From the IMG/VR virus record IMGVR_UViG_2869976549_000005: a DNA stretch of 41,251 bases; one strand, written 5' to 3'. Below the pieces are notes generated by a model. It was not told where the DNA came from and made no database searches. It saw only the letters and a program-made list of their open reading frames with translations. A program made the translations under genes and the position numbers. The stretch comes from a virus. Its lineage: Duplodnaviria; Heunggongvirae; Uroviricota; Caudoviricetes. Positions within the stretch are counted from its first letter, which is position 1. Each line of letters starts with the position of its first letter. Shown piece by piece: positions 5,749 through 39,450 of this stretch.

Positions 5749-6051
5749 ATGAGCAGAAAAACCCAACGTTACTCTAAAGAGTTCAAAGCCGAAGCTGTCA
5801 GAACGGTTCCTGAAAATCAACTTTCGATCAGTGAAGGCGCTTCCCGATTATCTCTTCCTGAAGGCACTTTAGGACAATGGGTTACCGCCGCCAGAAAAGG
5901 GCTCGGTACTCCTGGTTCCCGCACGGTGGCTGAACTGGAATCTGAAATTCTGCAACTGCGTAAGGCGTTAAATGAAGCTCGCCTTGAGCGAGATATATTA
6001 AAAAAAGCAACAGCGTATTTTGCACAGGAGTCGCTGAAAAATACGCGTTAA
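5749..6051 (+). CDS. IS600 OrfA (transposase N-terminal HTH component)
   Basis: MSRKTQRYSKEFKAEAVRTV..., 100 aa. Confidence 0.9.
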   Translation: MSRKTQRYSKEFKAEAVRTVPENQLSISEGASRLSLPEGTLGQWVTAARKGLGTPGSRTVAELESEILQLRKALNEARLERDILKKATAYFAQESLKNTR

Positions 6052-6086
6052 TCGAACAATGGCGACAACAATTTCCCATTGAAGCG

Positions 6087-6905
6087 ATGTGTCAGGTATT
6101 TGGTGTATCCAGGAGCGGTTATTACAACTGGGTACAGCATGAACCCTCAGACAGAAAACAAAGTGATGAGCGGCTAAAACTGGAGATTAAGGTGGCACAT
6201 ATCCGCACTCGCGAAACATATGGAACCCGGCGGCTCCAGACGGAGCTGGCAGAGAATGGCATCATTGTTGGTCGTGACCGACTGGCACGTCTTCGTAAGG
6301 AGCTAAGGCTACGCTGTAAGCAGAAACGCAAGTTCAGAGCGACTACGAACTCGAACCACAATCTGCCAGTTGCGCCAAATCTGCTGAACCAGACGTTCGC
6401 TCCTACAGCACCAAATCAGGTCTGGGTGGCGGACCTGACGTATGTTGCCACACAGGAGGGATGGTTGTACCTCGCTGGCATCAAAGATGTTTATACGTGC
6501 GAAATTGTCGGCTACGCCATGGGAGAGCGCATGACAAAAGAGCTGACAGGTAAAGCCCTGTTTATGGCGCTCAGGAGCCAGCGCCCACCTGCCGGGCTAA
6601 TCCACCACTCTGATCGAGGTTCACAGTACTGCGCATACGATTACCGGGTCATACAGGAGCAGTCTGGTCTGAAAACATCAATGTCGCGTAAAGGTAACTG
6701 TTACGACAACGCTCCGATGGAAAGCTTCTGGGGAACGCTGAAAAATGAGAGCCTGAGCCACTATCGTTTTAATAACCGGGATGAAGCCATCTCAGTAATA
6801 CGGGAATACATTGAGATTTTCTACAATCGTCAGCGTCGTCACTCTCGTCTGGGGAATATCTCCCCGGCAGCCTTCAGGGAAAAATATCATCAGATGGCTG
6901 CTTAA
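6087..6905 (+). CDS. IS600 OrfB (transposase catalytic DDE component; expressed as OrfAB fusion by frameshift)
   Basis: 272-aa ORF with IS3-family integrase-core sequence. Confidence 0.9.
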   Translation: MCQVFGVSRSGYYNWVQHEPSDRKQSDERLKLEIKVAHIRTRETYGTRRLQTELAENGIIVGRDRLARLRKELRLRCKQKRKFRATTNSNHNLPVAPNLLNQTFAPTAPNQVWVADLTYVATQEGWLYLAGIKDVYTCEIVGYAMGERMTKELTGKALFMALRSQRPPAGLIHHSDRGSQYCAYDYRVIQEQSGLKTSMSRKGNCYDNAPMESFWGTLKNESLSHYRFNNRDEAISVIREYIEIFYNRQRRHSRLGNISPAAFREKYHQMAA

Positions 6906-23357: not shown

Positions 23358-23660
23358 ATGAGCAGAAAAACCCAACGTTACTCTAAAGAGTTCAAAGCCG
23401 AAGCTGTCAGAACGGTTCTTGAAAATCAACTTTCGATCAGTGAAGGCGCTTCCCGATTATCTCTTCCTGAAGGCACTTTAGGACAATGGGTTACCGCCGC
23501 CAGAAAAGGGCTCGGTACTCCTGGTTCCCGCACGGTGGCTGAACTGGAATCTGAAATTCTGCAACTGCGTAAGGCGTTAAATGAAGCTCGCCTTGAGCGA
23601 GATATATTAAAAAAAGCAACAGCGTATTTTGCACAGGAGTCGCTGAAAAATACGCGTTAA
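23358..23660 (+). CDS. IS600 OrfA
   Basis: 100 aa, identical family to 5749-6051. Confidence 0.9.
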   Translation: MSRKTQRYSKEFKAEAVRTVLENQLSISEGASRLSLPEGTLGQWVTAARKGLGTPGSRTVAELESEILQLRKALNEARLERDILKKATAYFAQESLKNTR

Positions 23661-23695
23661 TCGAACAATGGCGACAACAATTTCCCATTGAAGCG

Positions 23696-24514
23696 ATGTG
23701 TCAGGTATTTGGTGTATCCAGGAGCGGTTATTACAACTGGGTACAGCATGAACCCTCAGACAGAAAACAAAGTGATGAGCGGCTAAAACTGGAGATTAAG
23801 GTGGCACATATCCGCACTCGCGAAACATATGGAACCCGGCGGCTCCAGACGGAGCTGGCAGAGAATGGCATCATCGTTGGTCGTGACCGACTGGCACGTC
23901 TTCGTAAGGAGCTAAGGCTACGCTGTAAGCAGAAACGCAAGTTCAGAGCGACTACGAACTCGAACCACAATCTGCCAGTTGCGCCAAATCTGCTGAACCA
24001 GACGTTCGCTCCTACAGCACCAAATCAGGTCTGGGTGGCGGACCTGACGTATGTTGCCACACAGGAGGGATGGTTGTACCTCGCTGGCATCAAAGATGTT
24101 TATACGTGCGAAATTGTCGGCTACGCCATGGGAGAGCGCATGACAAAAGAGCTGACAGGTAAAGCCCTGTTTATGGCGCTCAGGAGCCAGCGCCCACCTG
24201 CCGGGCTAATCCACCACTCTGATCGAGGTTCACAGTACTGCGCATACGATTACCGGGTCATACAGGAGCAGTCTGGTCTGAAAACATCAATGTCGCGTAA
24301 AGGTAACTGTTACGACAACGCTCCGATGGAAAGCTTCTGGGGAACGCTGAAAAATGAGAGCCTGAGCCACTATCGTTTTAATAACCGGGATGAAGCCATC
24401 TCAGTAATACGGGAATACATTGAGATTTTCTACAATCGTCAGCGTCGTCACTCTCGTCTGGGGAATATCTCCCCGGCAGCCTTCAGGGAAAAATATCATC
24501 AGATGGCTGCTTAA
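23696..24514 (+). CDS. IS600 OrfB
   Basis: 272 aa. Confidence 0.9.
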   Translation: MCQVFGVSRSGYYNWVQHEPSDRKQSDERLKLEIKVAHIRTRETYGTRRLQTELAENGIIVGRDRLARLRKELRLRCKQKRKFRATTNSNHNLPVAPNLLNQTFAPTAPNQVWVADLTYVATQEGWLYLAGIKDVYTCEIVGYAMGERMTKELTGKALFMALRSQRPPAGLIHHSDRGSQYCAYDYRVIQEQSGLKTSMSRKGNCYDNAPMESFWGTLKNESLSHYRFNNRDEAISVIREYIEIFYNRQRRHSRLGNISPAAFREKYHQMAA

Positions 24515-28084: not shown

Positions 28085-28387
28085 ATGAGCAGAAAAACCC
28101 AACGTTACTCTAAAGAGTTCAAAGCCGAAGCTGTCAGAACGGTTCTTGAAAATCAACTTTCGATCAGTGAAGGCGCTTCCCGATTATCTCTTCCTGAAGG
28201 CACTTTAGGACAATGGGTTACCGCCGCCAGAAAAGGGCTCGGTACTCCTGGTTCCCGCACGGTGGCTGAACTGGAATCTGAAATTCTGCAACTGCGTAAG
28301 GCGTTAAATGAAGCTCGCCTTGAGCGAGATATATTAAAAAAAGCAACAGCGTATTTTGCACAGGAGTCGCTGAAAAATACGCGTTAA
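28085..28387 (+). CDS. IS600 OrfA
   Basis: 100 aa. Confidence 0.9.
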   Translation: MSRKTQRYSKEFKAEAVRTVLENQLSISEGASRLSLPEGTLGQWVTAARKGLGTPGSRTVAELESEILQLRKALNEARLERDILKKATAYFAQESLKNTR

Positions 28388-28422
28388 TCGAACAATGGCG
28401 ACAACAATTTCCCATTGAAGCG

Positions 28423-29241
28423 ATGTGTCAGGTATTTGGTGTATCCAGGAGCGGTTATTACAACTGGGTACAGCATGAACCCTCAGACAGAAAACAAAGT
28501 GATGAGCGGCTAAAACTGGAGATTAAGGTGGCACATATCCGCACTCGCGAAACATATGGAACCCGGCGGCTCCAGACGGAGCTGGCAGAGAATGGCATCA
28601 TCGTTGGTCGTGACCGACTGGCACGTCTTCGTAAGGAGCTAAGGCTACGCTGTAAGCAGAAACGCAAGTTCAGAGCGACTACGAACTCGAACCACAATCT
28701 GCCAGTTGCGCCAAATCTGCTGAACCAGACGTTCGCTCCTACAGCACCAAATCAGGTCTGGGTGGCGGACCTGACGTATGTTGCCACACAGGAGGGATGG
28801 TTGTACCTCGCTGGCATCAAAGATGTTTATACGTGCGAAATTGTCGGCTACGCCATGGGAGAGCGCATGACAAAAGAGCTGACAGGTAAAGCCCTGTTTA
28901 TGGCGCTCAGGAGCCAGCGCCCACCTGCCGGGCTAATCCACCACTCTGATCGAGGTTCACAGTACTGCGCATACGATTACCGGGTCATACAGGAGCAGTC
29001 TGGTCTGAAAACATCAATGTCGCGTAAAGGTAACTGTTACGACAACGCTCCGATGGAAAGCTTCTGGGGAACGCTGAAAAATGAGAGCCTGAGCCACTAT
29101 CGTTTTAATAACCGGGATGAAGCCATCTCAGTAATACGGGAATACATTGAGATTTTCTACAATCGTCAGCGTCGTCACTCTCGTCTGGGGAATATCTCCC
29201 CGGCAGCCTTCAGGGAAAAATATCATCAGATGGCTGCTTAA
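28423..29241 (+). CDS. IS600 OrfB
   Basis: 272 aa. Confidence 0.9.
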   Translation: MCQVFGVSRSGYYNWVQHEPSDRKQSDERLKLEIKVAHIRTRETYGTRRLQTELAENGIIVGRDRLARLRKELRLRCKQKRKFRATTNSNHNLPVAPNLLNQTFAPTAPNQVWVADLTYVATQEGWLYLAGIKDVYTCEIVGYAMGERMTKELTGKALFMALRSQRPPAGLIHHSDRGSQYCAYDYRVIQEQSGLKTSMSRKGNCYDNAPMESFWGTLKNESLSHYRFNNRDEAISVIREYIEIFYNRQRRHSRLGNISPAAFREKYHQMAA

Positions 29242-29474: not shown

Positions 29475-29685
29475 GCCCCTCCGGAGAGGGCTGGAGAGTG
29501 GCGCTATGTGCCATTGCATGATGCCGGGTGCCTCCCGGTGAATTCAGTACCAGCACCTGAATCCGCGATTATCCCATATACCTACTCGCTGATTGCCCCT
29601 CCGCACAGGGGGATTCACCATGCCAGTTTCTTTTAACAAACTCCCCGCAAAACAGACAACTGTCAACCGTCTGAATTGTGAGACA
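29475..29685 (-). repeat. structured non-coding element, paralogue B
   Basis: See 27722-27950; conserved hairpins with compensatory loop differences. Confidence 0.6.
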
Positions 29686-29688
29686 TTT

Positions 29689-29714
29689 AAAAAAAAGGCC
29701 CGCAAAAGCGAGCC
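29689..29714 (-). terminator. intrinsic terminator just 3' of tRNA-Arg(UCU)
   Basis: Minus-strand GGCTCGC-tttt-GCGGGCC hairpin followed by T9. Confidence 0.5.
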
Positions 29715-29728
29715 AGGGAAAATAAGTG

Positions 29729-29805
29729 TGGCGCGTTGTACTGGATTCGAACCAGTGACCGATTGCTTAGAAGGCAATTGCTCTGTCCGGCTGAGCTAAC
29801 AACGC
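29729..29805 (-). tRNA. argO: tRNA-Arg (anticodon UCU), 77 nt, CCA encoded
   Basis: Cloverleaf deduced by hand: acceptor GCGUUGU/ACAACGC, anticodon loop CUUCUAA, T-loop GGTTCGAATCC. Confidence 0.8.
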
Positions 29806-29843
29806 ATGATGCAGATAATGGACCGCCATCGGGGACTTGAACC

Positions 29844-31181
29844 CATAAGCGCTAACTTAAGGGTTGTGGTATTACGCCTGATATGATTTAACGTGCCGAT
29901 GAATTACTCTCACGATAACTGGTCAGCAATTCTGGCCCATATTGGTAAGCCCGAAGAACTGGATACTTCGGCACGTAATGCCGGGGCTCTAACCCGCCGC
30001 CGCGAAATTCGTGATGCTGCAACTCTGCTACGTCTGGGGCTGGCTTACGGCCCCGGGGGGATGTCATTACGTGAAGTCACTGCATGGGCTCAGCTCCATG
30101 ACGTTGCAACATTATCTGACGTGGCTCTCCTGAAGCGGCTGCGGAATGCCGCCGACTGGTTTGGCATACTTGCCGCACAAACACTTGCTGTACGCGCCGC
30201 AGTTACGGGTTGTACAAGCGGAAAGAGATTGCGTCTTGTCGATGGAACAGCAATCAGTGCGCCCGGGGGCGGCAGCGCTGAATGGCGACTACATATGGGA
30301 TATGATCCTCATACCTGTCAGTTCACTGATTTTGAGCTAACCGACAGCAGAGACGCTGAACGGCTGGACCGATTTGCGCAAACGGCAGACGAGATACGCA
30401 TTGCTGACCGGGGATTCGGTTCGCGTCCCGAATGTATCCGCTCACTTGCTTTTGGAGAAGCTGATTATATCGTCCGGGTTCACTGGCGAGGATTGCGCTG
30501 GTTAACTGCAGAAGGAATGCGCTTTGACATGATGGGTTTTCTGCGCGGGCTGGATTGCGGTAAGAACGGTGAAACCACTGTAATGATAGGCAATTCAGGT
30601 AATAAAAAAGCCGGAGCTCCCTTTCCGGCACGTCTCATTGCCGTATCACTTCCTCCCGAAAAAGCATTAATCAGTAAAACCCGACTGCTCAGCGAGAATC
30701 GTCGAAAAGGACGAGTAGTTCAGGCGGAAACGCTGGAAGCAGCGGGCCATGTGCTATTGCTAACATCATTACCGGAAGATGAATATTCAGCAGAGCAAGT
30801 GGCTGACTGTTACCGTCTGCGATGGCAAATTGAACTGGCTTTTAAGCGGCTCAAAAGTTTGCTGCACCTGGATGCTTTGCGTGCAAAGGAACCTGAACTC
30901 GCGAAAGCGTGGATATTTGCTAATCTACTCGCCGCATTTTTAATTGACGACATAATCCAGCCATCGCTGGATTTCCCCCCAGAAGTGCCGGATCCGAAAA
31001 GAAGAACTAACTCGTTGTGGAGAATAACAAAAATGGTCATCTGGAGCTTACAGGTGGCCATTCGTGGGACAGTATCCCTGACAGCCTACAAAACGCAATT
31101 GAAGAACGCGAGGCATCGTCTTAACGAGGCACCGAGGCGTCGCATTCTTCAGATGGTTCAACCCTTAAGTTAGCGCTTATG
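29844..31181 (+). mobile_element. IS186 (IS4 family), 1338 bp, inserted at a GGGG-N7-CCCC site with ~12-bp target duplication
   Basis: Termini CATAAGCGCTAACTTAAGGGTTG...CAACCCTTAAGTTAGCGCTTATG; GGGACTTGAACCC duplicated on both sides. Confidence 0.9.
29893..31173 (+). CDS. IS186 transposase
   Basis: MNYSHDNWSAILAHIGKPEELDTSARNAG... 426-aa ORF. Confidence 0.9.
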   Translation: MPMNYSHDNWSAILAHIGKPEELDTSARNAGALTRRREIRDAATLLRLGLAYGPGGMSLREVTAWAQLHDVATLSDVALLKRLRNAADWFGILAAQTLAVRAAVTGCTSGKRLRLVDGTAISAPGGGSAEWRLHMGYDPHTCQFTDFELTDSRDAERLDRFAQTADEIRIADRGFGSRPECIRSLAFGEADYIVRVHWRGLRWLTAEGMRFDMMGFLRGLDCGKNGETTVMIGNSGNKKAGAPFPARLIAVSLPPEKALISKTRLLSENRRKGRVVQAETLEAAGHVLLLTSLPEDEYSAEQVADCYRLRWQIELAFKRLKSLLHLDALRAKEPELAKAWIFANLLAAFLIDDIIQPSLDFPPEVPDPKRRTNSLWRITKMVIWSLQVAIRGTVSLTAYKTQLKNARHRLNEAPRRRILQMVQPLS

Positions 31182-31251
31182 GGACTTGAACCCCGCGCAG
31201 CCAGCTTCGAAGGCTGGCGCTCTTTCCTGATGAGCTAATGGCGGTATGTGA

Positions 31252-31327
31252 TGGTGGCCCTTGCTGGATTTGAACCAGCGACCTGGCGATTATGAGTCGC
31301 TCGCTCTCACCACTGAGCTAAAGGGCC
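31252..31327 (-). tRNA. ileZ: tRNA with anticodon CAU, ileX/ileZ-like (tRNA-Ile2 type), 76 nt
   Basis: GGCCCUUUAGCUCAGUGG...anticodon loop CUCAUAA...GGUUCAAAUCC...CCA; resembles E. coli ileX rather than initiator or elongator Met. Confidence 0.7.
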
Positions 31328-31367
31328 GGGAGCCGCATAATAACGACGCGTAATTAATTCTTCAATA

Positions 31368-32426
31368 TCATCCGTTCTGGCTGACTAAATCCTGTACTTC
31401 CCGAACCGTCTGCTCAAAACGTTCAGTCTCCAGCTCAACGCCAATTGCACGACGCCCGAGCGCCAGTGCCGCTTTCACTGTCGAACCCAACCCCATGAAA
31501 AAATCTGCAATCAGGTCACCCGGACGACTGCTAGCGCTGATTATCTGCTGCAGCATTTCTGCCGGTTTTTCGCACGGATGTTTCCCGGGATAGAACTGCA
31601 CCGGTTTATGCGTCCACACATCGGTATACGGCACCTGCACCGTCACGCCAAAATACCGCCGCAGATGTTTATATTCACTCAGCAGCTCCGCATACTGCCG
31701 GTTCAGTGAGGTATACGTATCCACCAGCTGGTGGTGGAGCTTTTCCAGTTCACCACGCCGATGCTTCTCTTCTGCCACCCGGGCAAACAGCGCCTGTAAT
31801 TTCAGATAATCGCTTTCATTCGGCAACTGCCACTGACCGGCACTGAACCAGTGCGACACCATGTTTTTCTTTCCTGTGGCATCTGCAATCTGTTTTGCCG
31901 TTATCCCCAGGGCAGCTCGCGCATCACGAAAGTAAGAAATCAGCGGGGCCATCACATGCTGTTTCAGTGCACTGCCCTTCGCCGCATACCCGGCATCTTT
32001 CGGACGATACGGCCCCTGATAATGTTCCGCGAACAGAATGCGCTCTGTGGCGGGGAAATACGCCCGCAGGCTTTCCTTGTTGCATCCGTTCCAGCGTCCG
32101 GACGGCTTCGCCCAGATAATATGGTTCAGCACACTGAAGCGTTCACGCATCATGATTTCGATATCAGATGCCAGGCGATGACCACAGAACAGGTAAAGAC
32201 TTCCGGCAGGTTTCAGCACCCGCCAGAACTGCGCCAGACACTGGTCCAGCCACTTCAGGTAATCATCGTCGCCCTTCCACTGGTTATCCCAGCCCTCAGG
32301 CTTCACTTTAAAGTACGGCGGGTCCGTGACTATCAGGTCAACAGAATTTTCGGGTAACGACCGGATAAATTCCAGGCAGTCGGCGTTGATTAACTCACAA
32401 CTGGATATTTTTACAGTATTAAGCAT
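31368..32426 (-). CDS. orphan DNA methyltransferase (amino-methyltransferase; DPPY motif N-terminal, FxGxG SAM motif C-terminal)
   Basis: DLIVTDPPY near the N-terminus and DFFMGLGST near the C-terminus; no adjacent restriction endonuclease gene. Confidence 0.8.
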   Translation of the reverse strand: MLNTVKISSCELINADCLEFIRSLPENSVDLIVTDPPYFKVKPEGWDNQWKGDDDYLKWLDQCLAQFWRVLKPAGSLYLFCGHRLASDIEIMMRERFSVLNHIIWAKPSGRWNGCNKESLRAYFPATERILFAEHYQGPYRPKDAGYAAKGSALKQHVMAPLISYFRDARAALGITAKQIADATGKKNMVSHWFSAGQWQLPNESDYLKLQALFARVAEEKHRRGELEKLHHQLVDTYTSLNRQYAELLSEYKHLRRYFGVTVQVPYTDVWTHKPVQFYPGKHPCEKPAEMLQQIISASSRPGDLIADFFMGLGSTVKAALALGRRAIGVELETERFEQTVREVQDLVSQNG

Positions 32427-32576
32427 GGATCATTAAGCCTGTCTCTGATAGGCTCATTCTGCTTTTGCGCAAAGCAGTGGGCCTGAGGTTTGCTTGTGAA
32501 CCCAACGCATGAGCAGATGGCTGGTGGGTGCCCCTAACACCCACCAGCCGCCCATTTACCACAAATAAAAAAGCCT

Positions 32577-32774
32577 TCACTGCGGAAGGCGTCTGTAACA
32601 ACCGAACTGATAGTCTGCCAGACCCGCCATAACCAGCTGGGTCAGTATTAACTGGCAGCGTTCGCGTGAAAGGTAAGTATTCTGCGCTATCTCCCCGACT
32701 GTCGCCGGTTCGGTAACGCTTAATTCATTAAACACCACTCTGGCGGTTTCTGTCATATCCTGCTGTTTTAGCAT
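32577..32774 (-). CDS. small DNA-binding-like protein (65 aa), hypothetical
   Basis: ORF directly downstream of pR'/tR'; followed by a hairpin + T6 terminator. Confidence 0.35.
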   Translation of the reverse strand: MLKQQDMTETARVVFNELSVTEPATVGEIAQNTYLSRERCQLILTQLVMAGLADYQFGCYRRLPQ

Positions 32775-32894
32775 GTCTTTTCCTTTTCCGGTTAACGTGA
32801 CACACCAATAACTCTTGTCGAAAAAGCCAGCAAGCTGAAAGACAGGTATTCACCGCCACCAGCGCGTTTACTGTACTGACGCGATTTCAGTCAT

Positions 32895-32918
32895 AAAAAA
32901 CCCGCTCGGCGGCGGGTT
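32895..32918 (-). terminator. tR'-like intrinsic terminator downstream of the late promoter
   Basis: Minus-strand AACCCGCCGCCGAGCGGGTT followed by TTTTTAT. Confidence 0.65.
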
Positions 32919-32965
32919 GTAGAAACTCTTCTAACGTCAGGCATAAAACGCCCATCGTTATGACG

Positions 32966-32993
32966 AATTTACCACAGATTCCGGAAAAATCAA
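32966..32993 (-). promoter_or_regulatory. pR'-like late promoter (TTGATT - 16 bp - TAAATT) immediately after the Q-like gene
   Basis: -10 TAAATT identical to lambda pR'; sits directly 3' of the putative Q stop with tR' ~50 nt downstream. Confidence 0.55.
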
Positions 32994-32998
32994 CCTTG

Positions 32999-33820
32999 TT
33001 ACCTAGTTACCTTTTTTAACTGCCGCTCAGCCCATGCTTCTTCAATATCAAACCGGGTCACCAGCGCATCATAAAATTTCTTAACTGTTTTTTCCCATGA
33101 CGCGCGTGTTATCTGGTTTGTCACCTCGCATATAGCATTAAATGCCTCCGTTGATGGTAGTCTTTCATAGCCACGACCACCACAACGCTGGCAGTCTCTG
33201 ATAACAGGCATACCACGTTTTACCGACTCTTCACGATGAATGGCGACACCACGCCCACGGCAATCCTTACAGGCGGTGGAAACCTCACCCTTTCCGCCAC
33301 ACTCCGGACAGGCAACTTTTACCACCTCCCTGACTTTTTTCCATTCTTCCCAGTAAGACGGATACACACCTTTCGTACACTTTGCCCATACCGGCGGCTT
33401 ACCATCCGGATACTGGATCTTGTTTGTAAAAACCTCGCTTTCAATAAATTTTTTTCCGTGACAGCAGGGGCACTGTTTTTTGCTCGCCGCGCTACGGGCA
33501 TAATCTTCAAACGCATACGAAGCCATAATACGCATCACTGCCGGTTTTATTTCTGCCGGGAGTTTTCTTAACGCCGCCACGCGATCACACCGACTGAGTG
33601 CATATTCTGTCAGCAATTCTGTTGCCCGCTCTCTGTCATTCATACTAATGCCCATTTTCCCAAGGAACGCAGAAACCCCCATCTCAGCCCGATTCTGTGT
33701 CATGCCCTGCGCGGCCATCACATCAGTGATACTCAGCGCATCTTTCGACGTTGAGGCCGATGCATCAGTCAGGCCGGGGGATTTTGGGGAGTAGTATTTC
33801 GGTAAATCTTCCAGTTTCAT
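32999..33820 (-). CDS. putative late antiterminator Q (273 aa) with four CxxCxGxG zinc-finger motifs
   Basis: Assigned mainly by position (between RusA and pR'/tR'); motifs CPCCHGKK, CPECGGKG, CKDCRGRG, CQRCGGRG. Confidence 0.5.
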   Translation of the reverse strand: MKLEDLPKYYSPKSPGLTDASASTSKDALSITDVMAAQGMTQNRAEMGVSAFLGKMGISMNDRERATELLTEYALSRCDRVAALRKLPAEIKPAVMRIMASYAFEDYARSAASKKQCPCCHGKKFIESEVFTNKIQYPDGKPPVWAKCTKGVYPSYWEEWKKVREVVKVACPECGGKGEVSTACKDCRGRGVAIHREESVKRGMPVIRDCQRCGGRGYERLPSTEAFNAICEVTNQITRASWEKTVKKFYDALVTRFDIEEAWAERQLKKVTR

Positions 33821-34197
33821 TTTTTGACCTGCCCTTCAAGCATTATGGGATAAATCTTCACCCCCAGACGTCCACCAGATACTGGCTGAGCACGAACGAT
33901 ATTGATTTCATCAAACTGCTCATCGTCCATTAGCAACCCCGCATGCGTCAGCGCATCCAGCGGCGCTTTCAGAATATTGTCCAGGTCACGGCGGCGCTTA
34001 TCCGGTGGTTCTGCAATAATTTTTATTGCCAACCTTCCGGACAGGCTTAATTTCAGCCGCTGCTGGCGAACAATAAGCGCCACTGCCCGGCGATAACGCT
34101 CCCCGGCTTTTGATACAAAATATGTGCTGCCACGACGACGCCAGTAAGTGTTCACCGTCGGCGGGTAAGGTAAAACAAATTCTATGCGCTCGGTCAT
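33817..34197 (-). CDS. rusA: Holliday junction resolvase RusA
   Basis: 126 aa, MTERIEFVLPYPPTVNTYW...DLDN, conserved RusA N-terminus. Confidence 0.85.
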   Translation of the reverse strand: MTERIEFVLPYPPTVNTYWRRRGSTYFVSKAGERYRRAVALIVRQQRLKLSLSGRLAIKIIAEPPDKRRRDLDNILKAPLDALTHAGLLMDDEQFDEINIVRAQPVSGGRLGVKIYPIMLEGQVKK

Positions 34198-35184
34198 TTA
34201 TGCTTTCCACTTCAGAACACCCGAATTTCTCGCGTGCATTAAAAAACGAATCAGCAACAACAGCTGACTGCCGTGTTTCTCTTCAAAATCTTTTACTCCG
34301 GCATGTAGTTCGTTACGGCATTTACGGCATAACGGAATAACAAACAAATCATCAGCCTTTGTTCCCATCCCTCCCAGTCCATGACCAATGATGTGATGCG
34401 GATCATCTGCCTGATTGCCACACGTCATGCATTTCTGCGTTTTTACCCAGCGCGTGTATACAGGCATCTCTTCCCGTTGTGATTTCTGGCGCTGGAGATA
34501 CTGAGCCGGTGACTCCGGATCAACGGCAATGCTGACCACCGTCTTTTCCTGTGGTGGGTTCTGTTGCTGGTGGACGTGAGGCAGTAACGCAATATTTTTT
34601 GTGCGCTGCTTCAGTATGCTGGTGGCTGTCTGCTCTCCCGGTATGATGTCGCTTTCACTGTACACAGAGCGAATTTTTTCCGCACGCAACCCCAGCGAAC
34701 GACGTAATACCGCTTCCGGTAGCGCGTCCGCCACCTGATTGCGGACCGCCCACCAGGATAATTCAGCCAGAGATAATTCACGCTCCTGCGTACCGCTTAT
34801 TGCGTGACCGATGACGTCAATCATCCATGCTGACAGGTTTTGATGAGCAAGTTGCTCGAGTGATTCGGATGTCTGGTCACGCAGCTGGTTGTCGCAGTGC
34901 CAGCACAACACCATTGCGCCGGTACCATAACGGTGAATGACGGTTTCGCTGTGATGATAATCGCCGTGTGGCCACTGGCAGGATTTAATATGGCGCAACA
35001 GCCAGTCAGACAATGCACCAGCACCACCAGCAGCACGAATCACCCGTGCGTTACTGAAAAACGGCAGCAATGTTTTGTCTTCCACCAGCGGCTGGCGAGC
35101 GGCAGGAACGACCCCGGACGGCAGATTACGCATGCTTTTTGGTTCCGGCTCCACCAGTATTCTGCCGTTATGGAATGCTGACAT
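34198..35184 (-). CDS. DUF968-family nin-region protein (YdfU-like) with C-terminal HNH/zinc-finger-like motif
   Basis: C-terminal CMTCGNQADDPHHIIGH...CRKCRNELH; start taken at internal Met (the ORF can extend to 35256). Confidence 0.6.
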   Translation of the reverse strand: MSAFHNGRILVEPEPKSMRNLPSGVVPAARQPLVEDKTLLPFFSNARVIRAAGGAGALSDWLLRHIKSCQWPHGDYHHSETVIHRYGTGAMVLCWHCDNQLRDQTSESLEQLAHQNLSAWMIDVIGHAISGTQERELSLAELSWWAVRNQVADALPEAVLRRSLGLRAEKIRSVYSESDIIPGEQTATSILKQRTKNIALLPHVHQQQNPPQEKTVVSIAVDPESPAQYLQRQKSQREEMPVYTRWVKTQKCMTCGNQADDPHHIIGHGLGGMGTKADDLFVIPLCRKCRNELHAGVKDFEEKHGSQLLLLIRFLMHARNSGVLKWKA

Positions 35185-35256
35185 TGATTCACGGCCTGGC
35201 TTAACGATAACCAGACCGAGTTCCGGTACCAGAACAGGTCGAAGTAATACCCGCAC

Positions 35257-36921: not shown

Positions 36922-38090
<1,169 letters not shown>

Positions 38091-38293: not shown

Positions 38294-39112
38294 TTAAGCA
38301 GCCATCTGATGATATTTTTCCCTGAAGGCTGCCGGGGAGATATTCCCCAGACGAGAGTGACGACGCTGACGATTGTAGAAAATCTCAATGTATTCCCGTA
38401 TTACTGAGATGGCTTCATCCCGGTTATTAAAACGATAGTGGCTCAGGCTCTCATTTTTCAGCGTTCCCCAGAAGCTTTCCATCGGAGCGTTGTCGTAACA
38501 GTTACCTTTACGCGACATTGATGTTTTCAGACCAGACTGCTCCTGTATGACCCGGTAATCGTATGCGCAGTACTGTGAACCTCGATCAGAGTGGTGGATT
38601 AGCCCGGCAGGTGGGCGCTGGCTCCTGAGCGCCATAAACAGGGCTTTACCTGTCAGCTCTTTTGTCATGCGCTCTCCCATGGCGTAGCCGACAATTTCGC
38701 ACGTATAAACATCTTTGATGCCAGCGAGGTACAACCATCCCTCCTGTGTGGCAACATACGTCAGGTCCGCCACCCAGACCTGATTTGGTGCTGTAGGAGC
38801 GAACGTCTGGTTCAGCAGATTTGGCGCAACTGGCAGATTGTGGTTCGAGTTCGTAGTCGCTCTGAACTTGCGTTTCTGCTTACAGTGTAGCCTTAGCTCC
38901 TTACGAAGACGTGCCAGTCGGTCACGACCAACGATGATGCCATTCTCTGCCAGCTCCGTCTGGAGCCGCCGGGTTCCATATGTTTCGCGAGTGCGGATAT
39001 GTGCCACCTTAATCTCCAGTTTTAGCCGCTCATCACTTTGTTTTCTGTCTGAGGGTTCATGCTGTACCCAGTTGTAATAACCGCTCCTGGATACACCAAA
39101 TACCTGACACAT
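38294..39112 (-). CDS. IS600 OrfB
   Basis: 272 aa. Confidence 0.9.
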   Translation of the reverse strand: MCQVFGVSRSGYYNWVQHEPSDRKQSDERLKLEIKVAHIRTRETYGTRRLQTELAENGIIVGRDRLARLRKELRLHCKQKRKFRATTNSNHNLPVAPNLLNQTFAPTAPNQVWVADLTYVATQEGWLYLAGIKDVYTCEIVGYAMGERMTKELTGKALFMALRSQRPPAGLIHHSDRGSQYCAYDYRVIQEQSGLKTSMSRKGNCYDNAPMESFWGTLKNESLSHYRFNNRDEAISVIREYIEIFYNRQRRHSRLGNISPAAFREKYHQMAA

Positions 39113-39147
39113 CGCTTCAATGGGAAATTGTTGTCGCCATTGTTCGA

Positions 39148-39450
39148 TTAACGCGTATTTTTCAGCGACTCCTGTGCAAAATACGCTGTTGCTTTTTTTA
39201 ATATATCTCGCTCAAGGCGAGCTTCATTTAACGCCTTACGCAGTTGCAGAATTTCAGATTCCAGTTCAGCCACCGTGCGGGAACCAGGAGTACCGAGCCC
39301 TTTTCTGGCGGCGGTAACCCATTGTCCTAAAGTGCCTTCAGGAAGAGATAATCGGGAAGCGCCTTCACTGATCGAAAGTTGATTTTCAGGAACCGTTCTG
39401 ACAGCTTCGGCTTTGAACTCTTTAGAGTAACGTTGGGTTTTTCTGCTCAT
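39148..39450 (-). CDS. IS600 OrfA
   Basis: 100 aa. Confidence 0.9.
   Translation of the reverse strand: MSRKTQRYSKEFKAEAVRTVPENQLSISEGASRLSLPEGTLGQWVTAARKGLGTPGSRTVAELESEILQLRKALNEARLERDILKKATAYFAQESLKNTR

Follow-up and report, generated by a model that had tools for sequence, protein, structure and literature searches.

The window, as we call the whole stretch of DNA that was analyzed (41,251 nucleotides), contains on its minus strand an open reading frame (ORF) of 273 amino acids (32999..33820), which starts with ATG, ends with a TAA stop codon at 33001-32999, directly follows rusA, and precedes the late unit. Its translation carries four CxxC motifs, CPCCHGKK (residues 117-124), CPECGGKG (171-178), CKDCRGRG (184-191), and CQRCGGRG (210-217). 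Four C..C motifs are present in 106 of 108 full-length homologues, which come from Escherichia, Salmonella, Klebsiella, Enterobacter, Citrobacter, Serratia, Pantoea, and others, and are therefore not a product of chance. A first-pass annotation of this DNA had described the ORF, the four motifs, and a stop codon 5 bp before a promoter of the form TTGATT-16-TAAATT, all of which were found as described, and its proposal from gene position that the product is the late antiterminator Q is borne out by the placement after rusA with a pR'-like promoter and an intrinsic terminator immediately 3′. The ORF, promoter, and terminator all lie on the minus strand, which that annotation had left unstated.

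In minus-strand order, the genes around Q are DUF968/HNH, rusA, Q, a 65-aa ORF, a methylase, tRNA-Met, an IS transposase, tRNA-Arg, and an IS, with a sialate-esterase-like gene and a P21-type holin gene further downstream; the DUF968/HNH protein is encoded by the upstream neighbor, a 352-aa ORF. The 65-aa ORF (phrog_331; 32577..32774, minus strand), identified from the ORF list and a profile match, would be the first gene of the Q-dependent unit, with a second hairpin of terminator type after it (32590-32573). This ORF is also found behind different Q genes in Stx phages, and no similarity between it and lambda orf-64 was found. The next late-unit gene encodes a DNA methyltransferase (N6_N4_Mtase; 31368..32426, minus strand) that shares 94% identity with the Stx2_EH1910 methylase. 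The locus is syntenic with this Stx2a phage, in which the same gene, labeled quuQ, lies upstream of stx2AB and heads a unit comprising the 65-aa ORF, methylase, tRNAs, and stx2AB; a literature search on "quuQ" returned nothing relevant. The window represents a degraded lambdoid prophage disrupted by IS elements: an IS transposase gene splits the tRNA cluster of the late unit, a second IS sits at the position of stx2AB in Stx2_EH1910, and other IS-type genes are found upstream of the nin region. The window has no stx sequence.

Both checks that the first-pass annotation had named for the protein, a profile search against the Q families and a structure prediction, place it closest to Q-lambda. 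In Pfam, PF03589 (“Antitermination protein Q”) is matched in two stretches with 179.2 bits (cutoff 26.7; E=1.6e-53), and the Q21 (PF06530) and Q82 (PF06323) families are absent from the Pfam matches even at E<=1. The PHROGs family phrog_127 (“anti-termination protein Q-like”) spans residues 1-273. The best phmmer match in the PDB is Q-lambda 7ubm_Q (E=3.5e-41), aligned in two blocks: residues 1-113 align with lambda 1-113 without gaps (86 bits; G39 invariant), and residues 182-273 align with lambda 116-207. The lambda zinc ligands C118, C121, C144, and C147 correspond to C184, C187, C210, and C213, and all four of these arm cysteines are invariant in alignments of 9 and of 109 sequences. For an AlphaFold2 model built on 109 homologues (mean pLDDT 84), the top eight Foldseek matches in the PDB are Q-lambda chains; the best match of this predicted model is the NusA-engaged form 7ubn_Q (E=6e-14, TM 0.76 on the target). 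Judged from these sequence and model comparisons, the 273-aa protein clearly belongs to the Q-lambda family (PF03589). The first-pass annotation had seen in the zinc fingers an architecture other than the lambda Q fold and had called the family assignment uncertain, a view that is contradicted by the 179-bit PF03589 score, the PDB alignment on either side of an insertion, and the 7ubn_Q match. Two of the four CxxC motifs belong to a zinc ribbon that lambda Q has too, and the other two belong to an inserted ribbon.

Q-lambda is composed of a body with an HTH (residues 61-113 and 153-207) and a zinc-ribbon arm (114-152), and its disordered N-terminal 60 residues refold, when NusA is engaged, to form a torus by which the RNA-exit channel is narrowed (PMC9388147). 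By alignment to lambda and PMC9388147, residues 1-60 of the window protein (33641..33820, minus strand) would constitute the equivalent N-terminal torus or nozzle segment. Residues 61-113 (33482..33640, minus strand) constitute the first half of the helical body, aligned with lambda 61-113 and with predicted helices at 60-80, 82-85, and 92-108. The Q-lambda-equivalent zinc-ribbon arm, recognized from the four invariant cysteines and PMC9388147, is formed by residues 182-218 (33167..33277, minus strand), and the second half of the body, comprising the HTH region and a C-terminal helix, is formed by residues 219-273 (33002..33166, minus strand), aligned with lambda 153-207 and with predicted helices at 223-233 and 239-272.

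The remaining residues, 114-181 (33278..33481, minus strand), fall in a 66-column gap in lambda Q and carry C117, C120, C171, and C174. The insertion measures 66-68 residues and is located exactly at the junction of the Q-lambda body and arm. In the model, it folds into a long β-hairpin (125-136/159-170) with CxxC knuckles on either side and a short helical excursion at the tip, which would make it a second zinc ribbon, longer than the lambda-type one and placed in tandem with it. Because repeats 3 and 4 pair by homology to lambda Q, the zinc sites are assigned as 1+2 and 3+4, a tandem arrangement suggested by homology together with the order of the secondary-structure elements. In the 109-sequence alignment, F131, K134, C171, and C174 are invariant and C117 and C120 are near-invariant. 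The insertion is net basic. The knuckle regions of the two ribbons align with each other by BLASTP at E 0.008-0.011, a faint hint that the insertion might have arisen by internal duplication of the arm.

The Q of a Pectobacterium prophage (L056) bears on the history of this insertion: its identity to lambda Q is 81% in the columns that align with lambda, yet it has a 64-aa insertion at the same site. The window, phi80, and SfV forms all have the insertion as well; outside it, pairwise identities among these three and lambda Q are only 36-48%. Because so lambda-like a protein as the Pectobacterium Q contains it, the short form of lambda probably reflects a deletion; parsimony over these sequences favors a long form that is probably ancestral, with the deletion in the lambda lineage.

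The minus strand downstream of the gene reads TAA, CAAGG, TTGATT, a 16-nt spacer, TAAATT, CGTCAT, and AACGAT. TTGATT (32988..32993, minus strand) is the pR' -35 element, at the position of TTGACT in lambda, and TAAATT (32966..32971, minus strand) is the -10 element, which is the same as the lambda pR' -10, as the first-pass annotation had noted. The spacer, TTTCCGGAATCTGTGG (32972..32987, minus strand), is a candidate QBE on the grounds of conservation and position. AACGAT (32954..32959, minus strand), the lambda hexamer, begins 6 nt past the -10 element, is followed by GGG, and is predicted to be a -10-like sigma-dependent pause element; a QBE and a pause element were what the first-pass annotation had suggested looking for at this promoter. 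Lambda pR' transcripts begin with the first A of AACGAT, and the start here is inferred by analogy to lie at about 32959. A -35-like TTGACT is located just upstream of the pause element in lambda; the element at that place is degenerate here (TTCGTC). The promoter agrees with consensus at 8 of 12 positions, and because of this it was missed in a simple sigma-70 promoter scan of 32300-34300, which returned 0 sites with pR' under threshold. What argues for the promoter is thus its positional match to lambda pR' and its conservation in relatives rather than consensus strength.

Regions downstream of Q were compared in 12 phage loci and about 65 genome loci, and the spacer was compared in 40 unique promoters from many genera, within a clade whose Q proteins are at least about 48% identical. 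In these 40 promoters, the -35 position reads TTGATT or TTTACT and the spacer TTTCC[CG][GT]AA[TA]CTGTG[GT] is nearly invariant, whereas the 6 nt between the -10 and pause elements and the leader past GGG are variable. The Q-binding site TCGCGGA annotated in the phi80 record falls at the equivalent spacer position, and it is on account of the conserved spacer and the position of this phi80 site that 32972-32987 is taken as the candidate QBE; its likeness to the lambda QBE would be one of position. The conserved spacer may accordingly be read as a candidate QBE consensus for the clade. The spacer of the window contains TTTCCGGAA and CTGTGG. A clade of SfV/quuQ type has its own, different conserved spacer, and the long-form Pectobacterium Q precedes a lambda-like one, so the spacer tracks the lineage of body and arm, not the insertion. 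The pR' layout is alike in long and short forms, and AACGAT is the pause hexamer in 39 of 58 unique leaders of the family.

The hairpin and U-tract that had been reported some 50 nt beyond the promoter are confirmed by a scan and fold as the intrinsic terminator tR' (32893..32918, minus strand), with a 7-bp GC-rich stem and a T-tract. The stem (32918-32899) begins 48 nt past the -10 element, and the T-run ends near 32895. In a scan of a 2-kb region, 8 terminator-like sites were found against 1.9 expected, with tR' listed first; relatives have terminators at the equivalent site, which are annotated in ES18, SfV, and phi80. With the start set at the first A of AACGAT, the stem falls at +42..+61 and tR' at about +42..+66, and a terminated leader of about 65 nt is predicted. 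The fold of this leader comprises a 5′ hairpin, an A/U-rich linker, and the terminator with its U-tail; the hairpin (+1..+27; 32933..32959, minus strand) is predicted by the MFE fold and has the pause element as its 5′ arm. Of the 58 unique leaders, 47 have a complement of +1..+4 further downstream, where 6.7 would be expected to have one, and this complement varies with the type of pause element. From these sequences, we entertain, as a conjecture less probable than its negation, that the late leaders of the family share a covarying 5′-terminal hairpin that contains the pause element; we know of no function assigned to such a hairpin. An Rfam scan of 31000-34500 returned only tRNAs, with no match to the leader above threshold. 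Rfam matches to “Trp_leader” over the leader (21.8 bits vs 41) and to “P26” (below threshold) were treated as chance.

Taken together by analogy with lambda, the ORF very probably encodes a late antiterminator of the Q-lambda family, and the ~110 bp that follow it very probably form the matching pR'/QBE/pause/tR' cassette. On the mechanism described for Q-lambda (PMC9388147), RNA polymerase would start at pR' and pause near +16/+17 as sigma region 2 rebinds AACGAT. Without Q, it would stop at tR' and release the leader RNA of about 65 nt. With Q, the HTH body and the lambda-equivalent arm would bind the spacer DNA and touch the paused polymerase, after which, with the help of NusA, the N-terminal 44-60 residues would refold into a ring narrowing the RNA-exit channel. 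Terminator hairpins would thereby be blocked, allowing read-through of tR' and of the 32590-32573 site into the late genes. At three lambda positions implicated in flap-tip or torus contacts, the residue is different here (C53 is L, H56 is M, and L58 is I), and the arm tip is a basic SVKRG in place of the lambda TELWG; these changes, like the degenerate -35-like element and the extra arm, may be of consequence.

Among the known systems, lambda Q (207 aa; PDB 4MO1, 7UBJ-7UBN) shares with the window protein its Pfam family, body, arm, N-terminal segment, and zinc ligands, and lacks the 66-aa second ribbon. The lambda pR' reads TTGACT-17-TAAATT-TGACTC-AACGATGGG and that of the window TTGATT-16-TAAATT-CGTCAT-AACGATGGG, so that the -10 element, the 6-nt gap length, and AACGATGGG are identical, whereas the lambda spacer TATTGAATAAAATTGGG differs. 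By locus positions, the terminator lies about 190 nt downstream in lambda and about 65 nt downstream in the window, and the distance from the Q stop codon to the -35 element is about 43 bp in lambda and 5 bp in the window. The Q of phi80 (gp17, 269 aa; NC_021190) is a long form with the same four CxxC motifs and the same insertion, inside which it is 53% identical to the window protein, and is 36.5% identical outside it. In the phi80 record, pR' is annotated together with a site for Q binding between the -35 and -10 elements and, about 55 nt downstream, a terminator; the phi80 spacer, TTCGCGGAAAAACTGGA, is 17 nt long, and the pause element is AACGCT rather than AACGAT. Guo and Roberts are said to have studied, in 2004, the DNA-binding regions of phi80 Q together with those of lambda Q. 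The SfV Q, or 250-aa Q of E. coli and Shigella prophages (quuQ type), is likewise a long form: it has four CxxC motifs, its gene is accompanied by AACGATGGG and a terminator close by, and in SfV the same 65-aa ORF as in the window lies downstream of Q. This type is about 40% identical to the window Q and has a shorter inserted-arm tip; its spacer, TTTTCAAAAAATATGGA, differs, which implies a different QBE specificity. StxS and lambda 6S RNA are short constitutive pR' RNAs that end at tR', and a comparable RNA would be expected from the window. StxS, processed to 74 nt from a 258-nt transcript, occurs in phages with a different Q. For phi80, a short terminated late RNA has been reported (PMC7547250).

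Three alternative readings were weighed, one of which denies that the gene is Q. The four CxxCxGxG-like motifs recall the cysteine-rich domain of DnaJ (PF00684), whose CxxCxGxG repeats likewise bind zinc, and the gene could on this account encode a DnaJ-like or nin-region zinc-finger protein, with the true Q elsewhere. A weak PF00684 match (30.1 bits), a DnaJA2 entry in the Foldseek list at E about 0.5, and the name “chaperone protein DnaJ” given to the homologue P0029 by its source agree with it. However, the PF00684 score is under the cutoff of 32.7, TIGR02349 (DnaJ) scores 27.9 against a cutoff of 377.2, the NCBIfam matches to DnaJ and anti-TRAP zinc motifs are all sub-threshold, and no J domain was matched in the 273-aa protein in Pfam and NCBIfam profile searches. 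The DnaJ zinc sites are, moreover, nested (1+4/2+3) rather than tandem. Against these scores stand the strong PF03589, PDB, and Foldseek matches to Q-lambda, and no second Q-family gene was found beside the ORF, the adjacent 352-aa ORF encoding the DUF968/HNH protein. The DnaJ and separate-Q readings were rejected on the profile scores and the identity of this neighbor, and we regard them as extremely improbable; the combination of a non-Q family and a separate Q gene to the side, which the first-pass annotation had named as the outcome that would count against Q, was not what was found, and its term “DnaJ-like” holds for the motifs and not for the domain. A different question is whether the second ribbon gives long-form Q a materially different way of loading, for instance through a third DNA contact or a distinct RNA polymerase or NusA contact that is needed for function. 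Conservation of the insertion across the family and its basic character fit such a role, the insertion adjoins residues that in lambda touch the beta' zinc-binding domain (PMC9388147), and the PDB Q-lambda structures that were matched are all of the short lambda form. Lambda Q, however, functions without the insertion, the ES18, ST104, and SfV forms lack the tip of the hairpin, and long and short forms have a common promoter layout. Because the long-form Pectobacterium Q precedes the lambda-like spacer TTGAATAACATTGGG, the insertion does not set QBE specificity. A materially different way of loading is, in our judgment, rather unlikely. With the inserted arm next to the residues that contact the beta' zinc-binding domain, loading could still differ in detail, and our best guess for the insertion is an auxiliary DNA or RNA polymerase contact near that interface, with the mechanism unchanged. 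A broader proposal, that the two-ribbon form is both ancestral and prevalent, that lambda Q is a reduced version, and that the extra arm touches DNA, the beta' zinc-binding domain, or sigma/NusA, is put forward as speculation that we do not expect to hold in full. If it is true, a specific contact by the extra arm could change the loading requirements.

The other alternative concerns not what the parts are but whether they are still at work, namely that the cassette is an intact relic whose Q is uninduced or no longer acts on lysis and virion genes, so that the main product is the ~65-nt leader, perhaps a StxS-like sRNA. Such a reading does not conflict with the identification of the parts given above. 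Given the IS within the tRNA cluster, the IS at the stx position, and the IS-type genes upstream of the nin region, Q expression may have been lost and the late genes may be incomplete. Lysogens contain abundant terminated transcripts from pR', one of which, StxS, acts as a regulatory sRNA (PMC7547250); the architecture of the leader, with its 5′ hairpin, A/U-rich linker, and terminator with U-tail, would suit a product of this kind. On the other side, the Q ORF has kept its full length and shows 97% identity to alleles that are widespread, the cis elements are all intact, the holin gene and other late genes remain downstream, and no Rfam family scores above threshold on the leader. A relic of this sort is a serious possibility, although one to which we give less than even weight.

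As a late antiterminator of the Q-lambda family, the gene is not new: it is an ordinary, already annotated late antiterminator of a widespread long form. Among 5,426 complete E. coli genomes, 2,497 match the 936-bp segment of Q and promoter, with identities of roughly 80-98% and the annotation “antitermination protein”, and protein clusters at 94-97% identity contain thousands of member sequences. There are 249 matching phage records, 131 of them with at least 80% query coverage in one piece. Among the matches listed, the full-coverage ones are long forms, including ES18 gp73, ST104 gene 23, SfV Q, and Stx2c phages, and lambda, P22, and HK97 give two-piece matches from which the insertion is missing. 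Structural work has all been on the short lambda form, whereas most of the family members seen here have the second ribbon. The gene, which nearly half of the complete E. coli genomes contain, follows the lambda paradigm in its family, fold, and cis elements. For at least one Stx2a phage, namely Stx2_EH1910, stx2 is driven by a Q of this allele type, whose strength and specificity therefore bear on toxin expression. In megablast comparisons, likeness to phages with this Q stops at the terminator and likeness to Stx phages with other Q genes begins there, so the cassette moves as one mosaic unit.

The late leader, the RNA that runs from pR′ to tR′, is predicted by folding and complementarity to begin with a 5′-terminal hairpin (32933–32959, (−) strand), with counterparts predicted in the leaders of the Q-downstream comparison loci L001 and L004–L091. 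The pause element AACGA, at bases +1 to +4/5 of the leader, can pair with its complement TCGTT ∼20–27 nt downstream, and the lambda leader has the same AACGA/TCGTT pairing as the window. Within the Q family, the pairing covaries: AACA is matched by TGTT in ES18, ST104, and the Erwinia and Pantoea types, the Xenorhabdus leader pairings are GATGA/TCATC and ATAA/TTAT, and the Providencia pairing is AGAAT/ATTCT. An exact complement of +1 to +4 is present in 47 of 58 unique leaders compared with 6.7 expected from shuffling, although these sequences are related and their independence is overstated. The same caution, overstated independence among related sequences, applies when the leaders are divided by type: TGTT is found in 9/9 AACA-type leaders and CGTT in 2/9, whereas AACG-type leaders contain CGTT in 36/39 cases and TGTT in 7/39. 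As a guess, the hairpin might stabilize the 5′ end of the RNA.

Most relatives (L014–L048) have GTGAGCTA conserved immediately 5′ of the −35 element (∼10–45 nt upstream), frequently as an inverted repeat with GCTCAC farther upstream. In contrast, GTGAGCTA is missing from the window and from the E. coli relatives closest to it, where the stop codon of Q lies 5 bp from the −35 element. At the downstream end of the leader, tR′ (32893–32918, (−) strand) forms a mosaic junction. Alignments to mEp460_ev081 and vB_EcoS-640R1, which carry the same Q, are confined to the side running from the terminator towards Q. For many Stx phages that carry a different Q, the alignments cover only the opposite side, from the terminator into the 65-aa ORF.

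Synteny with the Stx2a phage Stx2_EH1910 extends from rusA through the tRNA cluster. However, stx2AB is missing from the late region of the window (29595–31327, (−) strand), in which 29688–29844, just past the second tRNA-Arg, abuts 29595–29685, sequence found beyond stx2B in Stx2_EH1910. The tRNA cluster is split by an IS with a DDE-transposase ORF (29893–31173, (+) strand), leaving a partial tRNA at 31178–31238.

The window prophage is heavily degraded. A two-ORF IS (100-aa and 272-aa ORFs), which we take to resemble an IS3-family element typical of Shigella, is present in four copies, at 5749–6905, 23358–24514, and 28085–29241 on the (+) strand and at 38294–39450 on the (−) strand; the 272-aa translations of two of the four are identical. 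A further integrase-core transposase ORF lies at 36922–37761.

Upstream of rusA is a 352-aa ORF (34198–35256, (−) strand) with counterparts in L002 (4312–5361) and L004 (1–317). In phage records LR597641 and LR597642, it is named “Phage antitermination protein Q”, a label that looks like a mis-annotation, because Pfam and PHROGs searches return DUF968/HNH endonuclease and no Q-family match. In addition, a short Q of the lambda type (207 aa, 31–32% identity to the window Q) is encoded by 10 genome contigs (L081–L090) whose assigned taxa are unrelated and include Bacillota, Collinsella, Pseudomonas, Oceanobacillus, Segatella, and Leeuwenhoekiella; these probably represent lambdoid or enterobacterial DNA contaminating the assemblies rather than true hosts.
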